In this document: in pieces, positions 12,737 to 58,575 of the stretch
How the letters are laid out: every line of letters starts with the position of its first letter
How positions within the stretch are numbered: position 1 is the stretch's first letter
From: an uncultured Collinsella sp.
GTDB taxonomy: Bacteria; Actinomycetota; Coriobacteriia; Coriobacteriales; Coriobacteriaceae
Direction: 5' to 3'
DNA: 64,000 bases
NCBI GenBank assembly: GCA_965151385.1
Contig: CBCTZJ010000005.1
Coordinates: 6,935 to 70,934, forward strand
Position numbers and translations under genes: made by a program
Notes under the pieces: generated by a model
Told to the model about the DNA's origin: nothing
Seen by the model: the letters and a program-made list of their open reading frames with translations, nothing else
The model's database searches: none

Positions 12737-12740
12737 GTCA

Positions 12741-16700: not shown

Positions 16701-16732
16701 GGTCCTCTTTTTAATAGAGAAGTTCAACCAAG

Positions 16733-16761: not shown

Positions 16762-16791
16762 TTGCGTTGGATTAAGTTTTAATCGTCCAGA

Positions 16792-31483: not shown

Positions 31484-31498
31484 GGATAAGGAGCCAAG

Positions 31499-38159: not shown

Positions 38160-38788
38160 GAATCCGAACGAAAATTAGGCATGTATCCGCTTCTTTAAAG
38201 TGGGCCAAAGCCAATGAGCACAACAGAACACAACTCGGGCGTTGGACAATCGGGCTCGACAATGTCACAATTGGCGATTACTCCTACGGGGAAATCAACG
38301 TTCTTACGGCGTCCAAGCAACCCAAGCTTGCCATAGGCGAATTATGCTCGATTGCGCCAAATGTGACTTTCGTTATTCACAACAACCATCCCATCGACCA
38401 TTTCACGACGTTTCCTCTGCGCCGCTTTGTCCTGGGAGAGACTTACGATGAGGCTTGCGGGAACGGCGGTATCGTCGTCGAAGAAGACGTTTGGATTGGT
38501 TACGGCGCGACCATCTTGGACGGCGTCCATATAGGCCGGGGGGGGGTCGTCGCAGCAGGAGCAGTCGTCACCAAGGACGTGGAGCCTTACACGATCGTTG
38601 GGGGTGTGCCGGCAAAACCTGTCAAGAAACGCTTCAGCCAGGACGTCATCGACCGGCTCCTTGCGCTCGACTACTCGAAGGTGGACAGGCGTTTCGTGGA
38701 GACGCATATCGAACAGCTCTATCGTCCGCTGGACGAGCGCTCCATTGGGGAGCTGCTAGATGAGCCAGGGGACAGGCATGAACTATAG
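38153..38788 (+). CDS. hexapeptide-repeat acetyltransferase (XAT/Vat-like)
   Basis: VWIGYGATILDGVHIGRGGVVAAGAVVTKDVEPYTIVGGVPAKPVKKRF. Confidence 0.85.
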   Translation: MLGIRTKIRHVSASLKWAKANEHNRTQLGRWTIGLDNVTIGDYSYGEINVLTASKQPKLAIGELCSIAPNVTFVIHNNHPIDHFTTFPLRRFVLGETYDEACGNGGIVVEEDVWIGYGATILDGVHIGRGGVVAAGAVVTKDVEPYTIVGGVPAKPVKKRFSQDVIDRLLALDYSKVDRRFVETHIEQLYRPLDERSIGELLDEPGDRHEL

Positions 38789-40196: not shown

Positions 40197-40262
40197 ACGG
40201 ATGCATAGCGCGGCTGGTCTGGAATAGATACTCAATTACTCAACTTAGAAAGGAATAGCACA

Positions 40263-42204
<1,942 letters not shown>

Positions 42205-42218
42205 GAGGGGAGAGACAG

Positions 42219-43679
42219 ATGGCAGACATCGCATTCGAGAAGGACCTGACCGTCGCCGAGACCGGCATCGGGGGCCTCAAGGTCGTCGACCTCGCCGTGC
42301 ACGGCGACTCGCGCGGCTGGTTCAAGGAGAACTGGCAGCGCGCCAAGATGACCGCCCTGGGCATCCCCGACCTCCGCGTCGTCCAGAACAACGTCTCCTA
42401 CAACGAGAAGAGGGGCGTCACCCGCGGCATCCACGCCGAGCCCTGGGACAAGTTCATCTCCGTCGCCCGCGGCAGCGTCTTCGGCGCCTGGGTGGACCTG
42501 CGCGAGGGCAGCGCCACCTACGGGAAAGTCTTCACCTGCACCCTGGACCCAAGCAAGGCCATCTACGTCCCGCGCGGCGTGGGCAACTCCTTCCAGGCCC
42601 TGGAGGACGGCACCGCCTACACCTACCTGGTGGACGCCCACTGGTCGCTGGAGCTGAAGAGGACCTACACCTTCGTGAACCTCGCCGACCCGGAGCTCGC
42701 CATCGAGTGGCCCATCCCGCTGGACCAGGCCACCGTCTCCGAGGCCGACCTCAACCACCCGATGCTCGCCGACGTCGTCCCGATGGCGCCAAGGAGGACC
42801 CTCGTCACCGGCTGCAACGGGCAGCTGGGGCATGCCGTGCGCGCGCTCGCGGAGGAGCGCGGCGTGGCGAAGGACTTCGACTTCTGCGACATCGACACCT
42901 TCGACATGTCAGACCCGGCGGCCTATTCGCAGTACGACTGGTCGCTCTACGGCACGGTCATCAACTGCGGCGCCTACACGGCGGTAGATAAGGCGGAGAC
43001 CCCCGAGGGCCGCGTGACCGCCTGGAAGGCCAACGCCACCGGCCCGGCGCTGCTCGCCCGCACCTGCGCCGAGCGCGGGATCACGCTCGTCCACGTGTCC
43101 AGCGACTACGTCTTCGACGGCACGGCGGAGGTCCATGACGAGGAGGAGCCCCTCAGCCCGCTGTCCGTCTACGGCCAGACCAAGGCCGCCGGCGACATCG
43201 CCGTGGCCGGCTGCCCGCGCCACTACATCATGCGCTCCAGCTGGGTCATCGGCGAGGGGCACAACTTCGTCAAGACGATGAAGTGCCTGTCCGACCGCGT
43301 CGCCGACCCCGAGGACGGGCTCACGCAGGTCACGGTCGTCGACGACCAGCTGGGCCGCCTGACCTTCACGCGCGACATGGCCGAGGCCATCTTCCACGTG
43401 TTGGACTCGAAGGCCCCCTACGGCACCTACGACTGCACCGGCTCCGGCGCCGTGAAGAGCTGGGCCGATATCGCCCGCGCCGTCTTCGAGGCAGCCAACG
43501 GCAACGGGGACAAGGTCGTGCCGGTTTCGACCGCCGACTACTACGCCGGCGCCGCCGGCCCCGTCGCCCCGCGCCCGGTCCACTCCGCGCTCGACCTTTC
43601 CAGGCTCGAGTCGGCTGGGTTCCATATGCCCGACTGGGAGGAAGAGCTAGGGGAGTACCTGGAGAATTATTTTGATTAA
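42219..43679 (+). CDS. fused dTDP-4-dehydrorhamnose 3,5-epimerase / dTDP-4-dehydrorhamnose reductase
   Basis: The N-terminal ~195 aa are RmlC-like (HGDSRGWFKENW). The C-terminal ~290 aa are RmlD-like (VTGCNGQLG, SSDYVFDG). ATG at 42219. Confidence 0.88.
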   Translation: MADIAFEKDLTVAETGIGGLKVVDLAVHGDSRGWFKENWQRAKMTALGIPDLRVVQNNVSYNEKRGVTRGIHAEPWDKFISVARGSVFGAWVDLREGSATYGKVFTCTLDPSKAIYVPRGVGNSFQALEDGTAYTYLVDAHWSLELKRTYTFVNLADPELAIEWPIPLDQATVSEADLNHPMLADVVPMAPRRTLVTGCNGQLGHAVRALAEERGVAKDFDFCDIDTFDMSDPAAYSQYDWSLYGTVINCGAYTAVDKAETPEGRVTAWKANATGPALLARTCAERGITLVHVSSDYVFDGTAEVHDEEEPLSPLSVYGQTKAAGDIAVAGCPRHYIMRSSWVIGEGHNFVKTMKCLSDRVADPEDGLTQVTVVDDQLGRLTFTRDMAEAIFHVLDSKAPYGTYDCTGSGAVKSWADIARAVFEAANGNGDKVVPVSTADYYAGAAGPVAPRPVHSALDLSRLESAGFHMPDWEEELGEYLENYFD

Positions 43680-43692
43680 TGAAAGAGAAACT

Positions 43693-44733
43693 ATGACTAA
43701 TCAAAAAGTACTCGTGACGGGAGCCGCTGGCTTCATCGGCGCATTCCTCGTCAGGAAGCTACTCGAGGAAACCGATGACACAATCGTCGGCCTCGACAAC
43801 CTCAACAGCTACTACGACCCCGGCATCAAGGACGCGCGCCTTCGCATGCTCGCCGAGGCCGATGCCGACGGCCGCTTCACCTTCGTGCGCGGCGACCTGT
43901 GCGACGCCGCCCTCATCGAGCACCTGTTCGCGGAGAACGGCTTCGACGTCGTTGTGAACCTCGCCGCCCAGGCGGGCGTCCGCTACTCCATCGAGAACCC
44001 GCGCGCCTACCTCGAGAGCAACCTCGTCGGCTTCTTTAACATCCTCGAGGCATGTCGCCACCATCCGGTCAAGCACCTGGTCTACGCCAGCTCCAGCTCG
44101 GTTTACGGCGGCAACAAGAAGGTGCCGTTCTCCGAGGAGGACCGCGTCGACTCGCCGGTGTCGCTCTACGCCGCCACCAAGAAGTCCAACGAGCTGATGG
44201 CCGCCGCCTACTCCAAGCTCTACTCCATCCCGGCCACCGGCCTGCGCTTCTTCACCGTGTACGGCCCCATGGGCAGGCCCGACATGGCCTACTTCGGCTT
44301 CACCGAGAAGCTGCGCCGAGGCGACACCATCAAGATCTTCAACATGGGCGACTGCCGCCGCGACTTCACCTACGTCGACGACATCGTCGAGGGCGTGAGG
44401 CGCGTCATGGACGCCGCGCCCGAGGTGAAGATGGGCGAGGACGGCCTGCCGCTCGCCGCGCACCGCGTCTACAACATCGGCAACTCGCACCCCGAGAACC
44501 TGCTCGACTTCGTCGACACGCTGCAGCGCGTGCTGGTGGAGGAGGGCGTGCTCCCGGCCGACTACGACTTCGAGGCCCACAAGCAGCTCGTGCCCATGCA
44601 GCCCGGCGACGTGCCCGTCACCTACGCCGACACCACGGCGCTCCAACGTGACCTGGACTACAAGCCCGCGACGCCGCTTGAGGACGGCCTGAGGGCCTTT
44701 GCCAAGTGGTATAAGCGCTACTACAACATTTAG
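43693..44733 (+). CDS. NAD-dependent nucleotide-sugar epimerase (UDP-glucuronate 4-epimerase-like)
   Basis: VTGAAGFIGAFL, YAATKKSNE (YxxxK) and an NLNSYYDP motif typical of Cap1J/LpsL-type enzymes. Confidence 0.85.
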   Translation: MTNQKVLVTGAAGFIGAFLVRKLLEETDDTIVGLDNLNSYYDPGIKDARLRMLAEADADGRFTFVRGDLCDAALIEHLFAENGFDVVVNLAAQAGVRYSIENPRAYLESNLVGFFNILEACRHHPVKHLVYASSSSVYGGNKKVPFSEEDRVDSPVSLYAATKKSNELMAAAYSKLYSIPATGLRFFTVYGPMGRPDMAYFGFTEKLRRGDTIKIFNMGDCRRDFTYVDDIVEGVRRVMDAAPEVKMGEDGLPLAAHRVYNIGNSHPENLLDFVDTLQRVLVEEGVLPADYDFEAHKQLVPMQPGDVPVTYADTTALQRDLDYKPATPLEDGLRAFAKWYKRYYNI

Positions 44734-44802: not shown

Positions 44803-46062
44803 ATGAAGATTGCTGTCGCAGGCACCGGTTACGTCGGTCTGTCCCTCGCCGTCCTGCTCTCGCAGCACAACGAGGTTCACGCGCTGGACATCGTTCCCGA
44901 GAAGGTCGAGAAGATCAACAACTATATGTCGCCCATCCAGGACGACGAGATCGAGCGCTTCCTGGCGGAGGCCAAGGCGGGGGAGCGCCAGCTCGACCTG
45001 CACGCCACCGTGGACGTGGCCGAGGCCTACGCGGGCGCCGACTACGCCGTCATCGCCACGCCCACCAACTACGACTCCGACAGGAACTTCTTCGACACCA
45101 GCTCCGTCGAGGCCGCCATCGCCGCCGTGCGCTCGGTTAACCCGGACGCCTGGATCGTCATCAAGTCGACCATCCCCGTCGGCTACACGGCGGGCCTGCG
45201 CGAGAGGCTGGGCGACAGCAAGATCTTCTTCAGCCCGGAGTTCCTGCGTGAGAGCAAGGCGCTCTACGACAATCTGCACCCCAGCCGCATCGTGGTGGGC
45301 GCGCCCAAGGAGGACGCCGAGGCCGTCGCGGCGGCCGAGCGTTTCGCCGGCCTGCTCGCTCAGGGCGCCGATCCAGTCGAGCTCGAGCGTGTCAACGCGG
45401 ACGGCTCAAGGGGCATCCCCGAGCTCGTGCTGGGCACCACCGAGGCCGAGGCCGTGAAGCTCTTCGCCAACACCTATCTGGCTCTGCGCGTGGCCTACTT
45501 TAACGAGCTCGACACCTACTGCGAGGTCCGCGGCCTCAACACCCGCGACGTCATCGACGGCGTCTGCCTGGAGCCGCGCATCGGGTCGCACTACAACAAC
45601 CCCAGCTTCGGCTACGGCGGCTACTGCCTGCCCAAGGACACCAAGCAGCTGCTGGCCAACTACAAGGACGTGCCCCAGAACCTGATCGAGGCCATCGTGG
45701 ACGCCAACCGCACCCGCAAGGACTTCGTGGCCGACGAGGTGCTGCAGATGGTGTGGGACCGCGTGTACGCCGGCAAGGAGAAGCCGGTCGTGGGCGTGTA
45801 CCGCCTGACGATGAAGTCGAACTCCGACAACTTCCGCGCGAGCTCCATCCAGGGCGTCATGAAGCGCGTGAAGGCCAAAGGCGTGCCCGTGGTGGTCTAC
45901 GAGCCCACGCTGGACGCGCCGGAGTTCTTCGGCTCCGAGGTGACCCACGACCTGGAGGCCTTCAAGGCCGGCTGCGACGTGATCGTCGCCAACCGCTGGA
46001 GCGACGAGCTCGCGGACGTGGCGGACAAGGTGTACACAAGAGATCTGTTTAAGAGGGATTAG
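44803..46062 (+). CDS. ugd: UDP-glucose 6-dehydrogenase
   Basis: [14 protein letters not shown], the catalytic GGYCLPKD and a C-terminal [13 protein letters not shown] block. Confidence 0.95.
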
Positions 46063-46065
46063 GAA

Positions 46066-46761
46066 GTGTCTTTTTCACATTCGATCTGCAGCCCCACACG
46101 TAAGCTTGTAATAATCGGAGCAAGTGGGCATGGAAAGGTTATCGCCGACATCGCGCTGATGTGCGGATACGCGGACATTCTCTTTCTTGATGACAACCCT
46201 GCAGTTTCGCAATGCGCCGGATTCCCGGTTGTAGGAACGTCCTCAATGGCCGGAAAGCTCGGAGGCCGCTGTGATTACGTTGTCGCGATCGGCAACCCCA
46301 TGGCGCGAGAACGGATTCAGGAAAGCATCGATGGCAAACTGGTGACCCTTGTTCATCCTAATGCCACAATTGGGCGATGCGTAGAAATTGGTGAGGGCAC
46401 CGTCGTAATGGCTGGTGCCGTGGTTAATTCCGATACCGTTATCGGCAAGGGTGTGATTGTGAACACTTGTGCTTCGGTTGATCACGACTGTCGAATAGCC
46501 AATTACGTTCATGTATCCGTGGGGGCACATGTTGCGGGCACTGTGGATATCCATGAGCGCACGTGGCTCGGAATCGGGAGCTGCGTGACCAACAATGTGT
46601 CCATCTGTTCGGACTGTATGGTAGGTGCAGGAGCCGTCGTTGTGCGCGATATAGATGTATCCGGGACTTATGTAGGCATTCCGGCCAGGTTTTCACACGT
46701 TAATGAAAACTGGCCTTCTGCTGGACTAACTTCTCGGCAAAAGCCGACGCTCCTAGAATGA
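46066..46761 (+). CDS. NeuD/PglD-family sugar N/O-acetyltransferase
   Basis: A KLVIIGASGHGKVIADI Rossmann-like N-terminus plus a hexapeptide-repeat C-terminus. GTG start 3 nt after the ugd stop. Confidence 0.8.
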   Translation: MSFSHSICSPTRKLVIIGASGHGKVIADIALMCGYADILFLDDNPAVSQCAGFPVVGTSSMAGKLGGRCDYVVAIGNPMARERIQESIDGKLVTLVHPNATIGRCVEIGEGTVVMAGAVVNSDTVIGKGVIVNTCASVDHDCRIANYVHVSVGAHVAGTVDIHERTWLGIGSCVTNNVSICSDCMVGAGAVVVRDIDVSGTYVGIPARFSHVNENWPSAGLTSRQKPTLLE

Positions 46762-46981
46762 CGGGCTGTTCGGGGACTGTAAAAACAATCACAAGACCCG
46801 AGGGATACCTTCATTAGCAGACGACCCACTATCTTTTCTTGTATAGCGAAAACAATGATGTCGAAATGCAGCTAAACTCTTAAATTTTTTTGACATACGT
46901 TAAGTTTTAGATTCAATTGTTTAAGAAGCAATCGGATTAAAATCACCTAGTTTGTCAAACATTAGGCGTAGCTGAGCGCGT

Positions 46982-47417
46982 CCTGCCCAAGGACACCAAG
47001 CAGCTGCTGGCCAACTACAAGGACGTGCCCCAGAACCTGATCGAGGCCATCGTGGACGCCAACCGCACCCGCAAGGACTTCGTGGCCGACGAGGTGCTGC
47101 AGATGGTGTGGGACCGCGTGTACGCCGGCAAGGAGAAGCCGGTCGTGGGCGTGTACCGCCTGACGATGAAGTCGAACTCCGACAACTTCCGCGCGAGCTC
47201 CATCCAGGGCGTCATGAAGCGCGTGAAGGCCAAAGGCGTGCCCGTGGTGGTCTACGAGCCCACGCTGGACGCGCCGGAGTTCTTCGGCTCCGAGGTCACG
47301 CACGACCTGGAGGCCTTCAAGGCCGGCTGCGACGTTATCGTCGCCAACCGCTGGAGTGACGAGCTTGCAGATGTTTCAGAGAAGGTTTATACAAGGGACT
47401 TATTTAAACGCGATTAG
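46982..47417 (+). pseudogene. ugd 3-prime fragment, copy 2 (last 145 codons)
   Basis: 46982-47296 is identical to ugd 45627-45941. 47297-47417 differs at 21 mostly synonymous positions. There is no 5-prime part of the gene. Confidence 0.95.
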
Positions 47418-47430
47418 CTGAAAGGCGATA

Positions 47431-48606
47431 ATGGAAAAGAATATTCAGTTCAAAAATGATGGCCGTCTGAAACTGCTGATCATCGTGGGCACCCGCCCCG
47501 AGGTCATCCGCCTGTCCGAGGTCATCAAGAAGTGCCGCCGCCACTTCGACTGCCTGCTGGCTCACACCGGGCAGAACTACGACTACACGCTCAACGGCAT
47601 CTTCTTCCGCGACCTGGAGCTCGCCGACCCGGACGTCTACCTGGACGCCGTGGGCGCGGACCTGGGCGAGACCGTGGGCAACATCATCGCCTCGAGCTAC
47701 AAGCTCATGGTCGAGGTCAAGCCCGACGCGCTGCTGATCCTGGGCGACACCAACAGCTGCCTGTCCGCCATCGCGGCCAAGAGGCTCCACATCCCCATCT
47801 TCCACATGGAGGCGGGCAACCGCTGCAAGGACGAGTGCCTGCCCGAGGAGACCAACCGCCGCATCGTCGACGTGATCTCCGACGTCAACCTGGCCTACTC
47901 CGAGCACGCCCGCCGCTACCTCAAGGACACCGGCTGCGCCCCCGAGCGCACCTACGTCACGGGCTCGCCCATGGCCGAGGTCCTGCGCGCCAACCTGGGC
48001 AAGATCGAGGCCTCCGACGTCCTGACCGAGCTCGGCCTTGAGCCCAAGCGCTACATGCTGCTGTCCGCCCACCGCGAGGAGAACATCGACACCGAGGCGA
48101 ACTTCACGAGCCTGTTCACCGCCATCAACGCGCTTGCGGAGAAATACGACATGCCGATCCTGTACTCCTGCCACCCGCGCTCCCGCAAGCGCCTGGAGGC
48201 CACCGGCTTCGAGCTCAACCCGCGCGTGCGCATGCACGAGCCCATGGGCTTCCACGACTACAACTGCCTGCAGATGAACGCCTTCGCGGTGGTCTCCGAT
48301 TCGGGCACGCTGCCCGAGGAGTCGAGCTTCTTCGCGAGTGTCGGGCATCCTTTCCCGGCGGTGTGCATCCGCACCTCCACCGAGCGCCCCGAGGCGCTGG
48401 ACAAGGCCTGCTTCACGCTGGCCGGCATCTCCGAGAGGGGCCTGCTCCAGGCCGTCCACACCGCCGTCGAGCTCGACGCGGAGGGGTCGCTCCCCGAGGC
48501 CCCCGTTCCCGACTACGCCGGCGAGACCGTGTCCACCAAGGTCGTCAAGATCATCCAGAGCTACACCGGCGTGGTGGACAAGATGGTGTGGAGGAAGAAC
48601 CTGTAA
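47431..48606 (+). CDS. wecB: UDP-N-acetylglucosamine 2-epimerase (non-hydrolysing)
   Basis: The IIVGTRPEVIRL N-terminus, HMEAGNR and typical length. Confidence 0.9.
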   Translation: MEKNIQFKNDGRLKLLIIVGTRPEVIRLSEVIKKCRRHFDCLLAHTGQNYDYTLNGIFFRDLELADPDVYLDAVGADLGETVGNIIASSYKLMVEVKPDALLILGDTNSCLSAIAAKRLHIPIFHMEAGNRCKDECLPEETNRRIVDVISDVNLAYSEHARRYLKDTGCAPERTYVTGSPMAEVLRANLGKIEASDVLTELGLEPKRYMLLSAHREENIDTEANFTSLFTAINALAEKYDMPILYSCHPRSRKRLEATGFELNPRVRMHEPMGFHDYNCLQMNAFAVVSDSGTLPEESSFFASVGHPFPAVCIRTSTERPEALDKACFTLAGISERGLLQAVHTAVELDAEGSLPEAPVPDYAGETVSTKVVKIIQSYTGVVDKMVWRKNL

Positions 48607-48636
48607 TCGACGGGGTTTGAACTATGGAGTCGCTGG

Positions 48637-49350
48637 ATGGCAAAAGAATCCGATAGTTTTGCCAAGAATTTAGCAATTTCGGTTATAACCGGCCTGTTTA
48701 CTATTGGCGCCGAAGTGGCTGCAGCCTATTTGGTGCCACAGGTACAAAATCCGATAATAGTTAACAATAATGTTGTTATATCTACAGACGATTATGAAAA
48801 AGCGGTAGACAGGATTCAAGAGCTCGAAGAAGAGCTTAATGAACTGAGGCCTGTGAACTCGAACGAGAACAGCAGCACTGGAAACAGCGCTGCTTCTGGC
48901 GTATCGAGCCGGGCATTATTGAAAGATAAGCCCGGCTCGTCATCCAATTATTCACAGTCAGGCGATACGAACGCGAAAGATACTGCGGGAAATCTCTATG
49001 ACCCCAACCACTGGGGAATTATTGGATCTTGCTCAGCTTGCAGTGGCTTTGCCGACTATTATTTGGGCGGAAACTATTCCAAGCTGTCCATTACCATCGC
49101 CCCTTCCAGCACAAATATTGATGGAAAGGGCAACTCTACTTCATTCGAAATTCTTGTTAAATACAAAGGCGATTCCGATTTCAGATGCATTCATACTGAA
49201 AAAAACATTAATAAATCGACCTCTCCAATTCAGCTTGAGAACTTAGATATTTCTGGTGCCGAATGGATTGAATTCAAAGCTATAGAAAATGTAGATGAGG
49301 GCCATTTAAACGGCAACGTACTAATGATTGCGGATGCCATTGTTGGTTAG
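48637..49350 (+). CDS. hypothetical membrane-anchored protein, AT-rich
   Basis: One N-terminal TM helix (LAISVITGLFTIGAEVAAAYLV), a short coiled coil, a Ser/Asn linker and a beta-rich C-terminal domain of unknown family. Confidence 0.55.
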   Translation: MAKESDSFAKNLAISVITGLFTIGAEVAAAYLVPQVQNPIIVNNNVVISTDDYEKAVDRIQELEEELNELRPVNSNENSSTGNSAASGVSSRALLKDKPGSSSNYSQSGDTNAKDTAGNLYDPNHWGIIGSCSACSGFADYYLGGNYSKLSITIAPSSTNIDGKGNSTSFEILVKYKGDSDFRCIHTEKNINKSTSPIQLENLDISGAEWIEFKAIENVDEGHLNGNVLMIADAIVG

Positions 49351-49972
49351 TTTCTAGCCTACTTGGCGTTTGTGCTTAGAGCTTCTAGCTGCAACTGTTG
49401 TTGATATCCGGAGAAGAAAAATTACTAAGATTGGTTCATAGTCTGTGCGTTTGATAGAAACTAATCGACCTGCGTCGACATCCGCGGAGATGCTGCGGGC
49501 GATTCGCTGTTTACGTTCACATTGCTCGCCATTCTGGCCATCGGCTACATTGCCTTCGCCGTGCTGTTTGTCTGTTTCAAGATATTCATCGACAGGCTCG
49601 TCGCCCGCTGGCGCCATAACGCTTTGACCGAGAGCGAGCGGGCGTGGGCGCAGGACGGGGAGCGGGCTGCCCTGTCGCTGTGAGGGAGGATCTGTTCTCT
49701 CGAGAGCTGTGAAAAGCCCTCGGCATCGGCAGGCGGGTCAGCTCAAAGGACATAGCCACGATTCTTCTGACGAGGGCTACGTTCGCGGTCAACGTCGCGA
49801 CGATGGCGCTGGGCCTCGCTGCTTAGCTACCTCGGGCAGTGTGGCCGCACCTTTTGCCGAAACGGGCGTTCTTTTTGCCGAGTGGCCGCTGTCGTCCGCT
49901 TTCGCTAAAAGCTACAAAGTGGGAAAATGGCCGATGTACCAAAGGCTCGATTGAGGAAGCAGGAGCACTGGC

Positions 49973-51583
49973 ATGTCGCGCAAACCTAAGCGTCTCGAAC
50001 CGTTCGGCATCAAGGGGATTGAAGTCTCCAGGTTCCGTGCCATGCACGATCTCGAGATTGGGCTCGGGCAGCTCGTTACCGTGATAGCGGGACAGAATGG
50101 GACGAGCAAGTCCACCATATTGGGCATGCTGGGGCAACCGTTCGGGCTCAGGGACAGGAGGACCATCTTCGGTAGGCCGTTCAGCACCAAGTTCACCGAC
50201 ATATTCAACATGTCGCCCGAGCACGATATCCCGGGCGAGCATCTCTATTACGTCGATTTCAGGGACGAGGCCATTTCCGGATCCCAGGGGCAGCACGTCC
50301 AGGTCAAATCGTTTAAGCGTCCCGCAAAAGACAAATCTTCCATTCGTATCGTGACCGGCTCCTCCCGAGCCAAGGGCGAGGGTAACATTGACTACCCCGT
50401 AATCTACCTCGGCCTGAAAAGGACCAACCCGGTCGGCGAGTTCCTTAACCCGCAGGCCGAGCAGACGGACTTTTCGGAAAGCGAGATCGAGCGCTTTAAC
50501 CAGTGGTACGCTCGCGTTATGGTCGACCAGGAAAAAACCACCGATGTTGTCAGGATGTCGAAGCACGGCCAGAAGGAGACCCTTCTCGTCAACACCGCCA
50601 CCTACGACTACCTCGCCAACTCCGCCGGGCAGGACAACCTTGGACAGATATTGGGCGCCCTCATCTCCTTTGAGCGGCTCGCCGACGTCATGGGCGAGGA
50701 GTACAGGGGTGGCCTTCTCCTGATCGACGAGCTCGACGTGACTCTGTTCCCCTCCTCCCAGGTGAGACTTTTCGATTTGCTGAAGGAGCGGGCCGCTGCT
50801 CAGAGGGTGCAGGTTGTTTTCACCACCCACTCGATGACGCTCCTTGAGAAGGCCGTCAAGGAGACGCAGGGCAAAAACGATGCGGTTAAGGTCCTGTATC
50901 TCAAGAAGAGGGAGTCCGGGATCAGGCTGACGATAAATCCGCCGATAGACGAGATTCAAGCCGACCTCATGGTTGAGCCGCTGAGGCCGAAAAAGGGCCC
51001 CAAGGTCGAAATCTGGTGCGAGGACGACGAGGCGAAGTGGGTGCTCGGGCAGATAATGCCTTCGCGGCTGAAGCGGAAATGCGATATTGTCTCCGCGAAG
51101 CTCAGCTGCGGCGAGCTGGGAGAGCTCGCCGTTAGGGACATAGCCTCGCTGCGAGGCGTGTGCTTCGTTGTGGACGCCGATTCAAACAGGGGTGCGGCAA
51201 AGAAGATAAAGGATTGCGCCAGAAGATTCGTGCTACCTGGAGGCGACAAGTCGCCTGAGCAGTCCATATACGATTTGCTTTGCGGCCTCTCGGACGAAGA
51301 CGACTTTTGGAGCAATGGCAGGCATTACACCAAGCAGGTCATGCTCAGCCGATTTGCCGACTCAAAGCGCGACTTCGAGCACAACGGCGGGGATAAGGAG
51401 CGCAAGCACTACAAGAAATGGTTCAGGAGAGAAAAGGCCGAAGGGCTGTGGGGCGAAAACGGCTTGGCTGTCGCCGCCATCTGGAAAGAGAGGTATGAAT
51501 CGGAGATTAGGGACTTTAACGAGAAACTCGAGCGAAGAGTTGACGCAATCATAAAACGGCAGCAGTATGAACGGGAACAATAG
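49973..51583 (+). CDS. OLD-family-like ATPase with C-terminal Toprim-like region
   Basis: Walker A GQNGTSKST and Walker B LLLIDELDVTLFP. The C-terminus has EIWCEDDEAKW (Toprim Glu) and, about 55 aa later, CFVVDADSN (DxD). Confidence 0.6.
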   Translation: MSRKPKRLEPFGIKGIEVSRFRAMHDLEIGLGQLVTVIAGQNGTSKSTILGMLGQPFGLRDRRTIFGRPFSTKFTDIFNMSPEHDIPGEHLYYVDFRDEAISGSQGQHVQVKSFKRPAKDKSSIRIVTGSSRAKGEGNIDYPVIYLGLKRTNPVGEFLNPQAEQTDFSESEIERFNQWYARVMVDQEKTTDVVRMSKHGQKETLLVNTATYDYLANSAGQDNLGQILGALISFERLADVMGEEYRGGLLLIDELDVTLFPSSQVRLFDLLKERAAAQRVQVVFTTHSMTLLEKAVKETQGKNDAVKVLYLKKRESGIRLTINPPIDEIQADLMVEPLRPKKGPKVEIWCEDDEAKWVLGQIMPSRLKRKCDIVSAKLSCGELGELAVRDIASLRGVCFVVDADSNRGAAKKIKDCARRFVLPGGDKSPEQSIYDLLCGLSDEDDFWSNGRHYTKQVMLSRFADSKRDFEHNGGDKERKHYKKWFRREKAEGLWGENGLAVAAIWKERYESEIRDFNEKLERRVDAIIKRQQYEREQ

Positions 51584-51620
51584 AGAGGCCGCTTGTTCGA
51601 CACATTGAGGAGGTGAGAAG

Positions 51621-52454
51621 ATGGCGACTACGTACACGCCCATCAGGTATCCTGGCGGGAAGACGAAGCTGTACCCCGAGATCAGGGCGATCCTCGAGAT
51701 GAACGACTTGCTTGGGCATCCCTACGCCGAGCTGTTCGCCGGCGGTGCGGGGCTGGCCATCAAACTTCTCCTGAAGGGCGACGTGTCCTCGATCGTGATT
51801 AATGATTACGACCGCGCCGTGTACTGCATGTGGGGTGCCATCGTCAATCACGCCGAAGAGATGTGCGAGTTCATCGACTCCGCCGTCTTGAACATCGAGA
51901 CCTGGAAGAAGATGCGCGACATGTACCAGAATCATGACGGGGTGGGTGATTTTGAGCTCGGCAAAGCGGCTTTCTACCTCAACAGGACGAACGTGTCGGG
52001 TATCTTGAGTGGCGGCGTCATAGGCGGGCTCGAGCAGACCGGCAACTACAAGATGGACGTTCGCTTCAACCGCAGGACCTTGAAGAAAAAGGTCATGGAC
52101 ATCGCGGCGCGAAGGGACGACATTGAGGTGACGAGACTCGACGCGGAGGACTTCATCGACGATAGGATGGGCGACTCTGAACTGTTTGCCTACCTCGACC
52201 CGCCGTATGTGCAGAAGGGCCCCGGTCTGTATCGCAGCGCGTTCGACGAGGCGAAGCATAGGTCGCTCGCCCGAAAGGTCGGCGATGCCAGGAGCAAGTG
52301 GGTCGTGACCTACGATGCCGACAAGCTCATCGACGACATCTACGGCAATTACGAGCGCGGGGACCTTGAGATTAGCTACACGGCCAACGTGAAGACCGTC
52401 GGCAGGGAGAAAATCATTCTCGGACCGGGCCTTGTCTGGCCTGAAGAGCTCTGA
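51621..52454 (+). CDS. dam: DNA adenine methyltransferase (Dam / D12 class)
   Basis: The N-terminal YPGGKTKLYPEI SAM-binding motif and the catalytic DPPY (YLDPPYVQKG). ggaggtg SD. Confidence 0.88.
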   Translation: MATTYTPIRYPGGKTKLYPEIRAILEMNDLLGHPYAELFAGGAGLAIKLLLKGDVSSIVINDYDRAVYCMWGAIVNHAEEMCEFIDSAVLNIETWKKMRDMYQNHDGVGDFELGKAAFYLNRTNVSGILSGGVIGGLEQTGNYKMDVRFNRRTLKKKVMDIAARRDDIEVTRLDAEDFIDDRMGDSELFAYLDPPYVQKGPGLYRSAFDEAKHRSLARKVGDARSKWVVTYDADKLIDDIYGNYERGDLEISYTANVKTVGREKIILGPGLVWPEEL

Positions 52455-52472
52455 CGCTTGGGGCTCACCCCC

Positions 52473-52508
52473 TTATGTTTCAAAAAGGCCACACTTTTTG
52501 AAACATAA
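52473..52508. repeat. perfect 15-bp AT-rich inverted repeat 19 nt after the dam stop
   Basis: ttatgtttcaaaaag / ctttttgaaacataa with loop gccaca. Confidence 0.85.
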
Positions 52509-52614
52509 CCCAAAAGTTGAGCCTTGATGCGCTGCCCTAAACCCTCCTTACCGTTCGCCTGCGTTTGCATTGGTGCTGTACGCAGCTAGGATATGCGCGT
52601 CGCGACAGCCCATC

Positions 52615-52692
52615 TTACGGCCGCGGTCGGCGGCTGGCCTTTATCGAACGGGCGTGAACGTCGAGCCCTGTGAAAGTGTTAACATTGTTCAT
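52615..52692 (-). mobile_element. IS110-family transposase N-terminal fragment (remnant)
   Basis: MNNVNTFTGLDVHARSIKA resembles the DEDD transposase N-terminus (xGxDVHxxS). It is truncated after about 25 codons. Confidence 0.35.
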
Positions 52693-52899
52693 CGAATGCC
52701 CCTTCCATGAATGCGGTGTAGGCGCTGGTTGTTTGAACGCCATTATTGTCGGCCTAATCCGCGGATAAGCATGCAGGAGGGTTTTCCGGCTTTTCATGTC
52801 CTGCTCATAGCGTCTTGCTTTAGTTTTTCTGATGTTGCCAAGACTTATCCGGTTTTGAGCTTTTGTCCGATAAATCTCTTGCTGTTCGTCCAGATCCAT

Positions 52900-53165
52900 T
52901 GATTTGACAATCGTTTGGGCCTTTTAGCACGGTATCCTTCGAGTGTAACCAGAACTGTATTTCCTTGGGAGGCGAATCTATACAGACATTGATGCCTCTT
53001 CGCACGACTGACGGACTTGATAAAAAGGACCTTGGCATAGGTAAAAAGTGACTCGCGAAAGACGGGGCTCGCCGTAAGCACAAGAATAACGCGTGTTCGA
53101 CCTCGTCGGTGGTCAACGAAGGCGCCTAGCGGGGTTCCGATGTAAAGCGGGTGGACCTTGAGGCC
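52900..53165 (-). mobile_element. IS66-family TnpB (Orf2)-like remnant, frameshifted
   Basis: VDHRRG...SPVFRESLFTY resembles TDMRKG...DPFSGxLFVF. A second frame gives KEIQFW, which resembles EEGQFIWP. The fragment is degenerate. Confidence 0.35.
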
Positions 53166-53199
53166 TCTGCGGTACCCCGCTTCTTCCGTTATGACGTCA

Positions 53200-53544
53200 G
53201 ATTCGGTGAGCTGCGCGTTGTTGGCCAAAGCGAGCCCCGCCGATAAGGTTGCTGCAATCAAAGACCCCGAGGTGCTCGTCAGCGTACACCACTTGAAGTC
53301 CAATTCCGACAACTTCCGCGCGAGCTCCATCCAGGGCGTCATGAAGCGCGTGAAGGCCAAAGGCGTGCCCGTGGTGGTCTACGAGCCCACGCTGGACGCG
53401 CCGGAGTTCTTCGGCTCCGAGGTGACCCACGACCTGGAGGCCTTCAAGGCCGGCTGCGACGTGATCGTCGCCAACCGCTGGAGCGACGAGCTCGCGGACG
53501 TGGCGGACAAGGTGTACACGAGGGATCTGTTTAAGCGGGACTAG
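53200..53544 (+). pseudogene. ugd 3-prime fragment, copy 3
   Basis: 53305-53519 is identical to ugd 45823-46037. The upstream ~100 nt still read as a diverged Ugd (LLAKASP...[21 protein letters not shown]). The 5-prime boundary is approximate. Confidence 0.9.
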
Positions 53545-53609
53545 GGACTAGGGGAGAGAGCAGAACCAGGCTGAACGGCTTCAATCATTCGCTAGCTTAA
53601 CCGCGTCGA

Positions 53610-53660
53610 GGGCGGGGTGTATCGGCTAATACCGATACACCCCGCCCTTCGTTGTTCTTT
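53610..53660 (+). terminator. strong intrinsic terminator after ugd copy 3
   Basis: 16-bp perfect stem gggcggggtgtatcgg / ccgatacaccccgccc, loop ctaata, then ttcgttgttcttt. Confidence 0.85.
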
Positions 53661-53858: not shown

Positions 53859-55406
53859 ATGGTGCTCCAATCCTATGACAAGCTTTTCGCTCCTTCCAAG
53901 GCCTACTGGGCTTATTGGCAAGAGCTTACGGAGGATGCTGTCTACAACGGACTAATTATTGAAGGATGGTTTGCCGACAAACTACCTCCTATTTTTACGG
54001 CTGAAAAATTTCTTTCTTATTGCAATAATCGCAAAATGGCAAGTAACAATTCGCCCTCAGATTGGATTAGATTTAATTACATACGTTGCAATGGTCAATA
54101 TCGAGAGTTTGGCATTCCGACCCCCTTTACATATGAGCGCTTGGCACGCGGTATAGCCGATAGCTGGAACGAAATAGTTTGTCACGTTCAAAAACAAACT
54201 TTATTGCAGTCTTATTCGGTTAGCAGAATTCATCCTCGCTTGATTCCTGATTCGCAGGCTATTTTCCAAATGAACTATTCAAACTGGATGAACGACCCTA
54301 GTCCAGAACCTGCCATTCTTATTGGGAAGCAATATGTTGTCAAATGCGACATATCCACCTGTTTTCCAAGTATATATACGCATTCTTTGTCGTGGGCGAT
54401 TATGGGTAGGGATAGGGCGAAACAAGACAGGACAGTTCGTCCAGATAACTGGGCGAATAAAATTGACAAATTGCTTCAAAATGTGTCCGACGGTGAGACC
54501 CACGGGCTATTGATTGGACCACATTCTTCGAATGTAGTCTCAGAACTAATTCTTACAGTCATCGATGCCAATTTATACAATAAAGGCTATCGATTTATTC
54601 GTAATATTGATGATTACAACTGTTACGTCGCTTCACAACAAGAGGGCGAGGGTTTTATCCTCTCGTTACAAGAAGAACTGTCCAAGTTTCGCCTGAGACT
54701 GAATCAAAAGAAAACTGAGGTACTGGAATTACCCATGGCGCTCTCACAAAGCTGGGTGAATTCTTTAAGGCGTAATGAGCCAATTAAGTCGGATCCGCTT
54801 GGATACAAGGACGTGTCATCCTTTTTGGAATACGCGATCAGCCTACTTCCCTCTTATCAAAATAATGCCTCAATATTGTTGTATGCATTTAAAATGCTCA
54901 CATCGCATTCGTTGAACCCTTCGGCAAAAGCCTATTTTCGAGATTTTGCTATACACCTCGCAATCGTATATCCATACCTTCTGCCGACATTTGAGGAAAC
55001 GGTAATTGAGCCGTTGAACATGAGCGAGGAATATATCGAGTGCCTCTCAAACAGCATCATCTATGAGTGCCTTAATCGTGGCGACTATCTTTCGGTTTGC
55101 TACGGACTTTACTACGCAATTAAATATGACTTTGAAATTGATGTACCCGAATTTGAGGATATCGAAAAGTCCAATGACTGCCTGCTGTATTTATTCGTCT
55201 ATTTATACGCCAAGCACTTTAAAAATAAAGCTTTGCTTGATCGGCTAAACGATCTTGCAGAGGAATTTCCTGAAGAAGGTCGCGAATTTGAAGAGATGTG
55301 GCTTTTTCTCTACCATATACGATCAAAAGAGTGCTTACCGTCTGATGAGTGGAAGGCCATTAAAAAGAGGGGAATCAAGTTCATTAAACCCGAATATTTA
55401 AAATAA
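53859..55406 (+). CDS. reverse transcriptase, Abi/UG (defence-associated) class
   Basis: RT motifs in order: REFGIPTP; VVKCDISTCFPSIY (motif A, D164); GLLIGPHSSNVVSEL (B); FIRNIDDYN (C, D251-D252); LRLNQKKTEV (D/E). A ~220-aa helical C-terminal extension follows. The two 60-nt samples counted are 35-42% GC. Confidence 0.85.
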   Translation: MVLQSYDKLFAPSKAYWAYWQELTEDAVYNGLIIEGWFADKLPPIFTAEKFLSYCNNRKMASNNSPSDWIRFNYIRCNGQYREFGIPTPFTYERLARGIADSWNEIVCHVQKQTLLQSYSVSRIHPRLIPDSQAIFQMNYSNWMNDPSPEPAILIGKQYVVKCDISTCFPSIYTHSLSWAIMGRDRAKQDRTVRPDNWANKIDKLLQNVSDGETHGLLIGPHSSNVVSELILTVIDANLYNKGYRFIRNIDDYNCYVASQQEGEGFILSLQEELSKFRLRLNQKKTEVLELPMALSQSWVNSLRRNEPIKSDPLGYKDVSSFLEYAISLLPSYQNNASILLYAFKMLTSHSLNPSAKAYFRDFAIHLAIVYPYLLPTFEETVIEPLNMSEEYIECLSNSIIYECLNRGDYLSVCYGLYYAIKYDFEIDVPEFEDIEKSNDCLLYLFVYLYAKHFKNKALLDRLNDLAEEFPEEGREFEEMWLFLYHIRSKECLPSDEWKAIKKRGIKFIKPEYLK

Positions 55407-55445: not shown

Positions 55446-57239
55446 ATGACTGGGCGTATTCCTTGGACGCGATATTCAGGTGAAGATATAGAATCGGTTC
55501 TAGCGACGTTAATTTCTCTTGAAGAGCGTGACGCCATTAAAATTCGACCTTCTAGGGGCGATGGTGGAATTGATCTTATCGTTTACCCTGATACCGAAAC
55601 GGTCAATGTATATCAAATTAAGAAATTTGCTGAAAACCTAAAGAGCAGTCAGAAGGCTCAGATTGAGAATTCGTGGAAAGAATTATTGACAACTACTGCT
55701 GATTTGCATTTAAAAATCAATAACTGGCATCTTGTGATGCCATTAGATCCCACAAACGAGAATCTAAGATGGGCTAAGGAACTGGTTGAACCTTCTGGTA
55801 CTAAATTCATCTGGGATGGCCTTTCAAGAGTTGATGGCTGGGCGTCCAAACACCCAGAAGTAATAAATTATTACTTTTCAAATGGAAAAGAAGAGGTCTC
55901 TGAGTATGCTGCGAAGCTGCTCTCCTTGGCCAATCTTCCAGACTGCAGCGATCCAGCCATTCTCGAGAGTAGGCTGCGCGATCTTTGTTCCAATCTAGAT
56001 AAACTGGATCCATACTATGCATATTCAGTTCACGTGCTCTCAGAATACGACAAACGCGATGATCTTTGCCCACGTGTCCCTGGTGTTGTTATGTCCCAAA
56101 TTCTAGTAACCCCTGGAGCGGGCCGAATCGCAATCGACGTAATTGAAAAAACGCCAATTGCTTCAATGCTGCATCCATTAACCTTTTCAGTGAAAATCAT
56201 TGCAGGGACCGACGATGAAAAAGAGCAAGCCCAGAATTTTATTGAATATGGCGTGCCCTTCTCTTCGTTGCCAGCGGAAGTAATTGATCAAAATTGCCAA
56301 TTACCTGTTGGACGTTCCTGCGATGGTATTCGAAAGGGAATCATTAAGGCCCTTGACCTGCCCGTATCAAATTGCATAAGAACGGCCTCTTTATTCTGGG
56401 AAGGATGCGGTGAACTGCGGTTAATAGTTGACAAAGCCACCCATGGAACTAAAGGGGTATTCTTTTCTGCCCACGATGCGACGGAAACATTCAGATTGAA
56501 CTTTAAGTGGAATGCAAGTCAGCCCGGCGGCACCATTAACTACGAGTTTTCATTTAGCAATTTAGCCAATAAACGCTCTCGAGACGTTGCAAGAACCTAT
56601 CGATTCTTAAGCGAAGCCACTGATAAAAAAGTTGAGCTCCGAATCAATGGCATGAGCGCTCTCTATTTTAATCTCGGCATTAGGGAAGATCTGGTTGTGA
56701 CAGTTAATGATATATACAGTCTGGCGGTTGCGTTAGAAACCGTTAACGGGGCCGCGGACAGCGAGATGCCATTTCCTGACCTTTGTGAAGCTACTAGAGG
56801 AGAAATTGCAAATCTAAGAGTTGCAGCAAGGCTGCTCGATGGCGAAGCAGTTGTATATAGCTGGGAATCACATGGGTTTAATCTAGAAGGGGATGAAGTC
56901 CAAAACTTTGAATACCCCTCTTTAGCGCGCTGGATTAAGCCTTTAGCTGTTAAGCTTGGAAGCAAAGAGGCATTCTGCGGTTTTGCGCAGACTACTCTAG
57001 TAATTGGTTCTTCAGAGTGCTCAACAGACCAAATAAATGATTCTGAACGTAAGCTAGTCTTAAACCCAGATGATCAGTACGGTAACAAAGCTATATGTGT
57101 AATGGTTTCACCAAATGAAGATGTACTGAAGGACCGAGATACTTTATGGACCGTTCGTCCTCCAAAAGTAGACGACTGGTTAACAATGGTTGAAGCTGCC
57201 GAATCATCAGCTGGAGGTTTAAAGCAATTGTCAAAGTAG
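55446..57239 (+). CDS. PD-(D/E)xK (Mrr-like) nuclease-domain protein with a large uncharacterised C-terminal region
   Basis: The N-terminus reads SGEDIESVLATLI...RGDGGIDLIVYP...VYQIKKF (D..D...QxK signature). The remaining ~450 aa have no motif I recognise. It lies 40 nt downstream of the RT on the same strand and has similarly low GC. Confidence 0.6.
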   Translation: MTGRIPWTRYSGEDIESVLATLISLEERDAIKIRPSRGDGGIDLIVYPDTETVNVYQIKKFAENLKSSQKAQIENSWKELLTTTADLHLKINNWHLVMPLDPTNENLRWAKELVEPSGTKFIWDGLSRVDGWASKHPEVINYYFSNGKEEVSEYAAKLLSLANLPDCSDPAILESRLRDLCSNLDKLDPYYAYSVHVLSEYDKRDDLCPRVPGVVMSQILVTPGAGRIAIDVIEKTPIASMLHPLTFSVKIIAGTDDEKEQAQNFIEYGVPFSSLPAEVIDQNCQLPVGRSCDGIRKGIIKALDLPVSNCIRTASLFWEGCGELRLIVDKATHGTKGVFFSAHDATETFRLNFKWNASQPGGTINYEFSFSNLANKRSRDVARTYRFLSEATDKKVELRINGMSALYFNLGIREDLVVTVNDIYSLAVALETVNGAADSEMPFPDLCEATRGEIANLRVAARLLDGEAVVYSWESHGFNLEGDEVQNFEYPSLARWIKPLAVKLGSKEAFCGFAQTTLVIGSSECSTDQINDSERKLVLNPDDQYGNKAICVMVSPNEDVLKDRDTLWTVRPPKVDDWLTMVEAAESSAGGLKQLSK

Positions 57240-57480
57240 GCTATTCTTACGATTTCCACCTGTAAGGGTCCTTTGTTACAGACTTAGGATTTTATGAACG
57301 CCAATCGACTCGAGGCGATTCATCCTTTCACCGATTGGCAAAACGATTTACACCTAATTTTGCGAATCGATTACAGGCTTTTAGCCTGCCCGTGCCTTGA
57401 TCTCGCTACACTAATACCTACTGCTACCAGGACATTTCCTGGTACATCTTTCATTGGCTCTTGCGAAGATCGGAGCGGTT

Positions 57481-58575
57481 ATGTTTGCCACCGCGTTCTA
57501 CACCAGCCGACACTACATTCTGCTTACCGTCATGGCCTGCCTATGCGTTTTGCTGGGCGGGCCTTCTTATGCCGCGGGCGCGGATAGCCTGTTCATTGCG
57601 GGCGACACGTACTGCGAACCGGGCGTGTCGGGTCCCGGATGGACTTGGACAGATAAAGATCATCTTGAGCTTAACGGCTATGCGGGCGAGGCCATCGGCG
57701 CCGACGGCGACCTGGTGGTGACGCTTGTGGGGCAAAACTCTGTGGTCGAGACGTATGCGCCCGATGCGGACATTTCCATGAGCGGCATGGAGGTGTGGGG
57801 AAACCTTACGCTTTGCGGCCCCGGCTCGCTCACGGCGACGGGTTCGCAATGCGGGATCCATGTGGCCCAGGCGCTGGTGGTGGACGGCTGCACGGTCGAT
57901 GCCAGGGCCGACGGAGCAGGCGTTCTTGACCAGGCTGTTGCCGGCGTTGCCGCAGGCAGCTTGACAGTACGTGGCGGCGGGCGCGTTGTTGCCGCGGGCG
58001 CGGGATCCGATACTGGCTTGCGCTTTTATGGTGTGCGTTTGCTCGACGAGGGGTTTGGTGCTGACGTTGCGAGCGAGACGCTTGTCGTGGATGCCTCCTG
58101 GCTGGATGCGACCGGTACGGATGCCGGCGTTGCCTGCAATCGCGGGTCGCTCGTGGCTGCGCACTTTGTGACTCCTGCAGGCGGAGCCTTTGGCGCTGCC
58201 GGCGTGGTGGATGCTGACGGGGCCGTGGCACCGCACGTGGTCATTGAGCCCGATGGTGCCACCGCCCCGGCGGGGGAGACCGTTACACCCGGCGGCGAGG
58301 TGCCGGGGGATGACACGGGCGAGACTACTGGTGGCGCCGACCCCGCTGCGAGGCAACCCGGTGCGGGGCCGGCGACGGATCCTGCGGTGAAACCCGCAGC
58401 AACGTCGCTCAAGACAACGGTCACCAAGACCACAGTCACCAAAACGACCAAGCCCAAATCCGCTATGGCAACAACACCGGCACTTCCCAAGACCAGCGAC
58501 AGCCACTGGATAGCTGCCTCTTTAACGCTATTCCTGCTGGGGACAGTGCTTCTGAGCGCCGCATATCGCCGCTAA
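57481..58575 (+). CDS. secreted, probably sortase-anchored surface protein
   Basis: A signal peptide ending in AAGA. The C-terminus has LPKTS plus a hydrophobic stretch and RR. High GC. The start is ATG 57481 (ggag SD) or TTG 57454. Confidence 0.65.
   Translation: MFATAFYTSRHYILLTVMACLCVLLGGPSYAAGADSLFIAGDTYCEPGVSGPGWTWTDKDHLELNGYAGEAIGADGDLVVTLVGQNSVVETYAPDADISMSGMEVWGNLTLCGPGSLTATGSQCGIHVAQALVVDGCTVDARADGAGVLDQAVAGVAAGSLTVRGGGRVVAAGAGSDTGLRFYGVRLLDEGFGADVASETLVVDASWLDATGTDAGVACNRGSLVAAHFVTPAGGAFGAAGVVDADGAVAPHVVIEPDGATAPAGETVTPGGEVPGDDTGETTGGADPAARQPGAGPATDPAVKPAATSLKTTVTKTTVTKTTKPKSAMATTPALPKTSDSHWIAASLTLFLLGTVLLSAAYRR

Follow-up and report, generated by a model that had tools for sequence, protein, structure and literature searches.

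Why should an operon that ends in an intact ugd gene, which encodes UDP-glucose 6-dehydrogenase (Ugd), be followed by two further copies of the 3' end of that same gene? The question is raised by a 64,000-nt stretch of DNA (the window) from an uncultured Collinsella sp. (assembly GCA_965151385.1, contig CBCTZJ010000005.1, positions 6,935-70,934 of the forward strand). Positions below are window coordinates, and L-numbers (L001, L016 and so on) denote other contigs or loci with which the window was compared. In the window, ugd closes a polysaccharide operon as its last conserved gene, and its product contains all three UDP-glucose dehydrogenase domains. We refer to the ugd tail within the intact gene as c1 and to the first and second truncated copies as c2 and c3. 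The answer that we consider probable is that the tails are scars of a serial, integrase-independent insertion of cassettes, anchored by homology, at the 3' border of the operon. A literature search on truncated ugd fragments and on defence hotspots in Collinsella returned no description of this locus or of arrays of ugd tails.

A repeat search of the window identified a three-copy family (45812-46063, 47167-47418 at 92% and 53294-53545 at 98%) and a two-copy family in which 45627-45926 matches 46982-47281 at 100%. Base-by-base comparison delimited the copies (Table 1) and bore out the end of the intact gene at 46062 and the block boundaries given in an earlier note on this DNA. The first truncated copy, c2 (46982-47417, 436 nt), begins at ugd nt 825 and is identical to the intact gene for 315 nt. 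Its last 121 nt carry 20 substitutions, one fewer than the 21 counted earlier; 17 of them fall at third codon positions and the sole protein change is AD to SE, which agrees with the earlier description of mostly synonymous change. The second, c3, begins at nt 1010. Its core (53305-53519) is identical to ugd 45823-46037 for 215 nt, with two mismatches at the 5' edge and four at the 3' edge, again as previously read; it has no amino-acid change, and its GC-rich 3' end is a variant unlike that of c1. Neither copy contains an indel, and both frames are open (130 and 128 aa). Repeats of 251-436 nt at 95-98% identity far exceed what chance would produce. The DNA between the tails is referred to as cargo: as the earlier note had claimed, cargo 1, between c1 and c2, consists of a NeuD-type acetyltransferase gene (by Pfam) and an AT-rich spacer (GC 0.39), and cargo 2 follows c2. 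The A at 46038 in c1 occurs only in tails with the acetyltransferase gene directly behind them.

The left edges of the truncated copies are abrupt. The c2 junction is sharp at 46981/46982, and tblastn over the whole window detected no ugd fragment besides c2 and c3; an extension of c2 to 46941 proposed by tblastn was rejected as spurious (~30% identity and an in-frame stop). The idea that the DNA left of c2 and c3 is very diverged ugd was also discarded: no co-linear similarity was revealed by tblastn with 170 Ugd proteins or by blastn (word size 7), so these are true non-homologous junctions. The earlier note had read the ~100 nt upstream of c3 as a diverged Ugd, which does not hold: ~6 of 18 residues match, with a gap, and 53080-53293 resembles none of ~170 ugd genes. 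A 31-nt repeat pairing 45038 with 48509 at 74% identity was treated as chance, and promoter scans near the tails gave nothing above shuffled expectation.

For comparison, other contigs were gathered through exact look-up of the 419-aa Ugd protein, which is present in identical form on nine other contigs. The nearest genomes are Collinsella of the aerofaciens group, with Ugd identities of 89-97%. When metagenome contigs were scanned with Ugd, the matches listed came almost all from distant taxa, with one Collinsella-like locus among them. Exact look-up of the acetyltransferase returned only contigs with the same arrangement, and that of the 130-aa open reading frame (ORF) of c2 returned no match. 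The region from ugd to ~57323 proved hypervariable between strains, and the identical 419-aa Ugd is accompanied by different cargo on contigs from other samples. L005 has all three tails in the same layout, at 99.97% identity over 12.5 kb and with one private single-nucleotide polymorphism (SNP) in c2. L002 and L003 have ugd, the acetyltransferase gene and c2, followed by genes unlike those of the window, and L001, L004 and L006 have no acetyltransferase gene and carry other genes behind ugd. The content between ugd and a set of 373-aa, DCD, HTH and Fic genes varies across L001-L006, L009, L011, L016, L181, L183 and L186.

The acetyltransferase cassette is present in one and absent from the other of two near-identical strains. 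L003 equals L004 plus exactly 1,355 bp (a ugd tail, the acetyltransferase gene and the spacer), in flanks that are 99.7-99.9% identical. In L003, c1 has cassette-linked bases at its 3' end and c2 has them at its 5' end; the 3' end of c2, together with its flank, equals the ugd end and flank of L004. Judged from these alleles, the arrangement would fit a reciprocal crossover, either of a circular unit by a single crossover or of linear DNA with ugd on both sides by a double crossover. The same pair fits the earlier proposal of deletion through the repeats, the direction of the change being unproven. The junction between the spacer and c2 is the same in L002, L003, L005 and L007 and stands ahead of two downstream contexts, one as in L003 and one as in the window; the unit has therefore moved via recombination within ugd sequence. 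These observations also bear on a purely local history, in which the ugd tail was tandemly duplicated in this lineage and unrelated DNA was inserted later, with no ugd-anchored transfer between strains. A recent event of that kind would give identical direct repeats of 215-315 nt. Yet each tail's 3' end travels with a flank that is found behind intact ugd elsewhere, one spacer-c2 junction stands in two downstream contexts, the 1,355-bp difference is an exact presence or absence between near-identical strains, and the c3 junction is common to L002-L004 at 81%, so it is old and either widely exchanged or inherited. We regard a local origin as very improbable.

The segments behind c2 and c3 have counterparts in other strains, in agreement with the earlier interpretation of the copies as fossil recombination junctions. 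In L016 (Collinsella sp. AF11-11), an intact ugd is directly followed by cargo 2: its positions 10825-16925 correspond to window 46982-53079 at 96.5% over 6.1 kb, and the intact gene itself has the AT-rich last ~45 nt of c2 (changes from 46017 on), linked to wecB. The flank of c3 resembles that of the intact ugd in L012, at 85% over window 53294-53662, which includes ~118 nt of downstream flank. L172 contains cargo 2, the DNA left of c3 (pre-c3) and c3 as in the window, and then other DNA from 2 nt past the stop, with different genes. The divergence in L172, the identical Ugd with different cargo and the 1,355-bp unit all uphold the earlier proposal that the ugd tail serves as a homology anchor. 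The pre-c3 segment is 81% identical to DNA in L002-L004 that lies between the start of a 678-aa gene on the minus strand and an old, shortened ugd fragment, itself 90.6% identical to the resident ugd. From this resemblance, the junction of pre-c3 with ugd is old and common to the window and L002-L004; in the window, resident sequence has replaced the ugd part of the junction.

The repeats themselves call for a check on the assembly, in which contigs of co-existing strains could have been joined via the ugd tail so that the three tails do not lie on one molecule. Perfect repeats of 215-315 nt exceed assembler k-mers, and contigs L007, L008 and L090 end in or near the repeat. Against such a joining, the boundaries between spacer and c2 and between pre-c3 and c3 are unique sequences that must be in the reads, and they recur in contigs of several samples; moreover, the distinct 3' ends of the copies mean that one linear path alone uses every edge. 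L005 repeats all three copies at 99.97% with its private SNP in c2, and the junctions are reproduced in four near-identical or independent assemblies (L005; L002 and L003 for ugd-acetyltransferase-c2; L172 for cargo 2-c3). Truncated tails are also found in NCBI assemblies and on two long contigs, L181 (265 kb) and L177 (291 kb). We regard an artefact as extremely improbable. The earlier note had named an assembly artefact and a fixed arrangement across relatives as the outcomes that would count against it; both were looked for and neither was encountered.

The near-identity of the tails has more than one source. Position 45879 is A in c1, c2 and c3 of both the window and L005, and G in 14 of 14 other sequences, the c3 of L172 included; a lineage-private A in all three copies points to gene conversion among them. 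L002 and L003 each have strain-specific bases common to their own c1 and c2, and both observations speak for the recent gene conversion suggested by the earlier note. Fragments that have not been homogenised, in L004 and L009, are ~91% identical to the ugd of their own genome. In L009, a metagenome-assembled genome of Collinsella aerofaciens, a ugd fragment cut at both ends (12658-12966, residues 239-346, ~91% identical) lies 1.4 kb downstream of the intact ugd. Conversion does not account for all of the identity between the window copies, part of which stems from recent insertion or from the position of crossovers. In the diverged block of c2, the changes at 45942, 45945 and 45981 (ugd coordinates) are L009 alleles, the first two also found in L001, and the block is itself a mosaic of circulating alleles. 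Its changes are mostly synonymous because they were inherited from working ugd genes of other lineages; the tail fragments themselves are under no selection.

This allele origin weighs on the alternative that the truncated copies are functional, as stand-alone UDP-binding-domain proteins or as cis elements driving the cargo, and are kept by selection. Their frames are open (130 and 128 aa), their changes are almost all synonymous, NCBI annotates such ORFs, one 130-aa form occurs in 83 blocks, and wecB starts 14 nt past the c2 stop, so that its native upstream context is retained. However, the synonymous bias is inherited, the same alleles being present in the intact ugd of L016, L009 and L001, and conversion accounts for the match to the resident gene. 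The 5' ends vary from event to event and no start codon is conserved; older fragments have lost both ends or have decayed to ~91% (L004, L009, L176), and some database fragments are frameshifted ugd genes (P0015, P0012). Selection for function is improbable as the reason for their retention.

Taken as scars of homology-anchored insertion, the tails suggest the following course of events. Each cassette would have originated in one non-homologous join that placed cargo beside a 5'-truncated ugd tail, for which homology-facilitated illegitimate recombination or circularisation of a fragment are candidates. The resulting unit of ugd tail and cargo would be flanked by ugd homology on both sides and could therefore enter any genome with an ugd, as a circular form via a single crossover or as linear DNA via a double crossover; comparison of the strains indicates that such units do spread. 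An incoming unit would give the intact gene a new 3' end and shift the resident tail and its follow-on DNA downstream. In the window, c3, the terminator behind it and the following DNA would form the oldest layer. Cargo 2, from the AT-rich ugd end through wecB, the ATPase-methyltransferase pair and pre-c3, would have come next through a crossover between 45823 and 45941, and the 1,355-bp unit with the PglD-like acetyltransferase gene last, through a crossover upstream of 45942. The abrupt changes from identical to diverged blocks would mark crossovers or the ends of conversion tracts, and gene conversion among the copies would keep their cores identical. The perfect repeats of 215-315 nt should allow RecA-dependent loss of cassettes.

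Several points weigh against this account. The order of segments across the 315-nt perfect repeats rests on short-read assemblies, several of which agree, and the order of events was deduced solely from junction sharing and divergence. No circular intermediate, within-sample deletion variant or transfer event was observed. Competence, transduction and conjugation are all conceivable routes for the uptake of DNA by Collinsella. The identity of c1 and c2 may be mostly recency, conversion being supported by few informative sites. A more far-reaching version, in which the tails would serve throughout Collinsella as portable homology arms for an integrase-free exchange of cassettes, strikes us as unlikely; units such as the 1,355-bp acetyltransferase unit would be excised as circles by RecA, pass from strain to strain and re-enter any ugd. 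If it were true, conversion from the intact ugd would keep the arms recombination-competent, and polysaccharide decoration and anti-phage repertoire could be switched fast and reversibly in a common gut commensal.

Site-specific integration would leave a partly similar picture. Integrase islands at tRNA genes or gene 3' ends leave direct repeats of the target 3' end between neighbouring islands while the target stays intact, and the copies could correspondingly be attL and attR sites of islands stacked at the ugd 3' end, each with its own integrase and a replacement tail. The layout resembles such stacks, homology breaks exactly at the ugd stop codon, and three or four independent junctions lie within 24 nt of the catalytic Cys codon. 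Unlike in such islands, neither an integrase nor short att repeats with a common start are found at ugd: no integrase, transposase or recombinase domain was detected by Pfam or PADLOC in the cargo ORFs or the small ORFs of the gaps, cargo 1 has only 919 nt and one acetyltransferase gene, and the repeats are long and unequal (251-436 nt), starting at nt 825 and 1010 here and at nine positions overall. The left sides of the junctions have no motif in common, and the clustering is not significant. Stacked integrative islands are thus a highly improbable source of the tails. The IS66/IS110 remnants claimed for cargo 2 have no Pfam match and no blastx match to ORFs of the fetched loci, an IS110-type transposase included. 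The only hint of IS110 is an ORF at 52615-52899 on the minus strand with what we take to be an IS110-like N-terminal motif; the remnants remain unconfirmed.

Truncated ugd tails are not confined to the window but are common in Collinsella. At least nine independent junctions were located at the DNA level, at ugd nt ~727, ~734, 818, 825, 831, 841, 874, ~909 and 1010, and the sequences left of them are unrelated and have no motif in common. Four of the nine (L183, c2 of the window, L181 and L189) lie at nt 818-841, equivalent to window 45620-45643 and no more than 24 nt from the codon for the catalytic Cys (nt 826-828); in L190 this motif is scrambled. A junction hotspot at this codon was considered and rejected as not significant, because a rough estimate puts the chance expectation at ~0.2 clusters of this size and sampling was biased by the choice of queries. 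Deriving junction positions from the N-terminal extensions of 120 fragment proteins was likewise dropped, several of these being frameshifted ugd (P0015, P0012, L190).

A protein search with the c2 ORF gave as its best 120 listed matches only short (111-226 aa) Ugd-tail ORFs, some of them on contigs of 100-540 kb and some in NCBI records; truncated tails also lie on L181 and L177. In the contexts listed, the tail stands between polysaccharide or defence genes and a conserved right flank, and the defence genes nearby are of the SIR2, DUF87, KAP NTPase, ThsB-TIR, Schlafen and AAA_13 types. One 130-aa tail ORF, P0047, has an identical protein across contigs in 83 blocks (L173-L180, at ~9864-10393 in most). 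Its neighbour is a conserved gene of the Schlafen/AlbA_2 type, and it lies at the right-hand limit of a defence region whose content (SIR2, DUF87, KAP NTPase, ThsB-TIR, caspase-like and helicase genes) is highly variable. In P0033, P0038, P0046 and P0090, Ugd residues ~11-74 are joined to residue ~289, so that these are internal deletions and not 5' truncations. NCBI labels such ORFs 'UDP binding domain-containing protein'. The repeated tails explain these numerous stand-alone annotations, which are pseudogene fragments.

The nearest precedent for the layout is found in the rhs 'C-terminal displacement' arrays, for which homologous recombination with circular intermediates and no dedicated recombinase was proposed (Jackson et al. 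2009, PMC2935791). There, too, an intact gene is followed by near-identical, 5'-truncated direct repeats of its conserved 3' part, of varying length; different DNA of lower GC lies behind each repeat, and in other strains it is the intact gene that carries the same modules (PMC2935791). Truncated repeats, near-identity and modules on the intact gene elsewhere are all present at ugd, whereas an exchanged C-terminal toxin domain with a cognate immunity gene is not. The variable part of rhs is the gene's own toxin tip plus immunity gene, and the protein changes (PMC2935791); here Ugd is unchanged or altered at two residues, the anchor is a housekeeping sugar-nucleotide dehydrogenase, and it is separate polysaccharide and anti-phage genes that vary. 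The layout itself has been described before, in rhs toxin loci, and what appears new is an ordinary metabolic gene as anchor with independent cargo.

Serial modules behind a conserved upstream anchor, with the older module kept and shifted downstream, are also a feature of orphan immunity arrays of the Vibrio cholerae type VI secretion system, attributed to homology-facilitated illegitimate recombination and homologous replacement with no evidence of an integrase (Kirchberger et al. 2017, PMC5361080). In those arrays a new effector takes the place of the old one and the immunity gene is retained for a selective reason (PMC5361080), whereas at ugd nothing is lost and both anchor-gene fragments and whole earlier cargo are retained. 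As in two reports on defence and horizontal-transfer hotspots (Pseudomonas aeruginosa, PMC10250203; chromosomal hotspots, PMC5635113), an interval between conserved genes varies by strain. Between ugd and the 373-aa gene, different strains have Drt4, a PD-Lambda-5-like pair and AbiL-, SIR2-, KAP-, TIR- and Schlafen-type genes, so that both variable content between conserved flanks and anti-phage enrichment are found here. In contrast to such hotspots, this one lies inside a polysaccharide operon and truncated core-gene copies record single events; to our knowledge, no hotspot description reports repeated truncated copies of a flanking core gene between cassettes. In the Klebsiella K locus (galF...ugd) and the pneumococcal dexB...aliA locus, switching occurs via recombination in conserved flanking genes. 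The likeness lies in the use of sugar-nucleotide genes at the edge as crossover sites for variable gene sets; capsule and O-antigen exchanges are double-crossover replacements that, unlike the ugd locus, normally leave no serial partial copies of the flanking gene.

Seen in this light, the insertion-and-displacement layout of polymorphic toxin loci could form at an ordinary metabolic gene, which would give a concrete, integrase-free mechanism for the turnover of defence islands beside core genes. The tails would record single acquisitions at a hotspot for surface-polysaccharide and anti-phage genes in an abundant, strain-diverse genus of the human gut. The repeats predict that cassette content is unstable and possibly heterogeneous, for example in PglD-type acetylation within a PglF/E/C-like operon, and they cause short-read assemblies to break at the locus.

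Table 1 Features at and around the ugd tails (window coordinates)
Feature	Position	Strand	Basis or remark
Polysaccharide operon (exopolysaccharide/capsular polysaccharide type) upstream of ugd	29603..44733	+	Pfam
Intact ugd, UDP-glucose 6-dehydrogenase, 419 aa	44803..46062	+	Pfam PF03721/PF00984/PF03720; ATG at 44803
c1, 436-nt ugd tail repeated downstream	45627..46062	+	Repeat search, base-by-base comparison
Cargo 1: PglD/NeuD-type N-acetyltransferase	46066..46761	+	Pfam PglD_N + Hexapep; GC 0.53
Cargo 1: AT-rich spacer, GC 0.39, ending at the non-homologous c2 junction	46762..46981	+	Comparison; GC
c2, identical block, 315 nt = ugd 45627-45941	46982..47296	+	Base-by-base comparison
c2, diverged 3' block, 121 nt, 20 substitutions	47297..47417	+	Base-by-base comparison, allele comparison
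Cargo 2: wecB-type UDP-GlcNAc 2-epimerase, GC 0.65	47431..48606	+	Pfam Epimerase_2
Cargo 2: 237-aa ORF, GC 0.43, no family match	48637..49350	+	Pfam, PADLOC, GC
Cargo 2: AAA_15/AAA_21 ATPase, OLD/Gabija/PtuA type	49973..51583	+	Pfam, PADLOC
Cargo 2: N6-adenine DNA methyltransferase, best match PD-Lambda-5_B	51621..52454	+	Pfam; PADLOC E 2.5e-99
Cargo 2 tail, non-coding or decayed; AF11-11 homology stops at 53079	52455..53079		Comparison, blastx
Pre-c3, non-ugd DNA left of c3	53080..53293	+	Comparison
c3, 251-nt ugd tail	53294..53544	+	Repeat search, base-by-base comparison
Terminator-like hairpin, 18-bp stem	53608..53649	+	Hairpin scan; 64 nt past c3 stop
Cargo 3: Drt4-type defence reverse transcriptase	53859..55406	+	PADLOC E 6e-186
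Cargo 3: 597-aa ORF	55446..57239	+	Cargo 3 GC 0.41-0.44
Right border of variable region; homology with most Collinsella loci resumes	57323..58575	+	Comparison

The operon upstream of ugd (Table 1) comprises genes for a PglF-like dehydratase, a DegT aminotransferase, a PglC-like Bac_transf protein, glycosyltransferases, a hexapeptide acetyltransferase and an epimerase, together with rmlA, rmlB and rmlCD. It opens with the PglF-, PglE/DegT- and PglC-like genes (29603-33408), and the sole PglD-type acetyltransferase gene is that of the mobile cargo 1, which, going by what is known of these families, could complete a pathway of the di-N-acetylbacillosamine type. That gene, present or absent among strains, has its GTG start 3 nt past the ugd stop.

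The GC content is 0.66 in ugd and 0.39-0.58 in the cargo except for wecB (0.65). With its host-like GC, wecB has the look of a native alternative arrangement and not of foreign cargo; its assignment in the earlier note was confirmed by Pfam. The 'OLD-like ATPase plus Dam' of that note became an AAA_15/AAA_21 ATPase beside a methyltransferase matching PD-Lambda-5_B. The ATPase has generic AAA_15/OLD/Gabija/PtuA-type matches, with PD-Lambda-5_A not among its top 25, and the pair may be a variant two-gene system (49973-52454).

The hairpin behind c3 is GC-rich and followed by a T-rich run, and nothing of the kind lies behind c1 or c2. It probably represents the terminator that the operon had originally; as it occurs only behind c3, both cargo 1 and cargo 2 lie after the end of the ugd coding sequence and ahead of the apparent terminator of the operon. 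Further right, the 597-aa ORF behind Drt4 has no Pfam match and a weak N-terminal match of the LmuA/Avs2-like type (E 1.8e-5). Since Drt4 systems are usually described as consisting of one gene, the 597-aa ORF may encode a partner of Drt4 or belong to a separate system.

The anti-phage matches of the window are Drt4 (6e-186), PD-Lambda-5_B (2.5e-99) and AbiLi (5e-29), and related loci have SIR2, KAP, ThsB-TIR, RloB and Schlafen types. At the right border lies the 373-aa gene (57454-58575, GC 0.64). The flank beyond it contains a dCTP-deaminase-like gene (58714-59505), an AbiLi-like AAA_21 ATPase gene (60533-61708, E 5e-29) with a 176-aa partner (61698-62228), an HTH_3 gene (62575-63264) and a Fic gene (63458-63973), and parts of this gene set recur in L004, L181 and L183.

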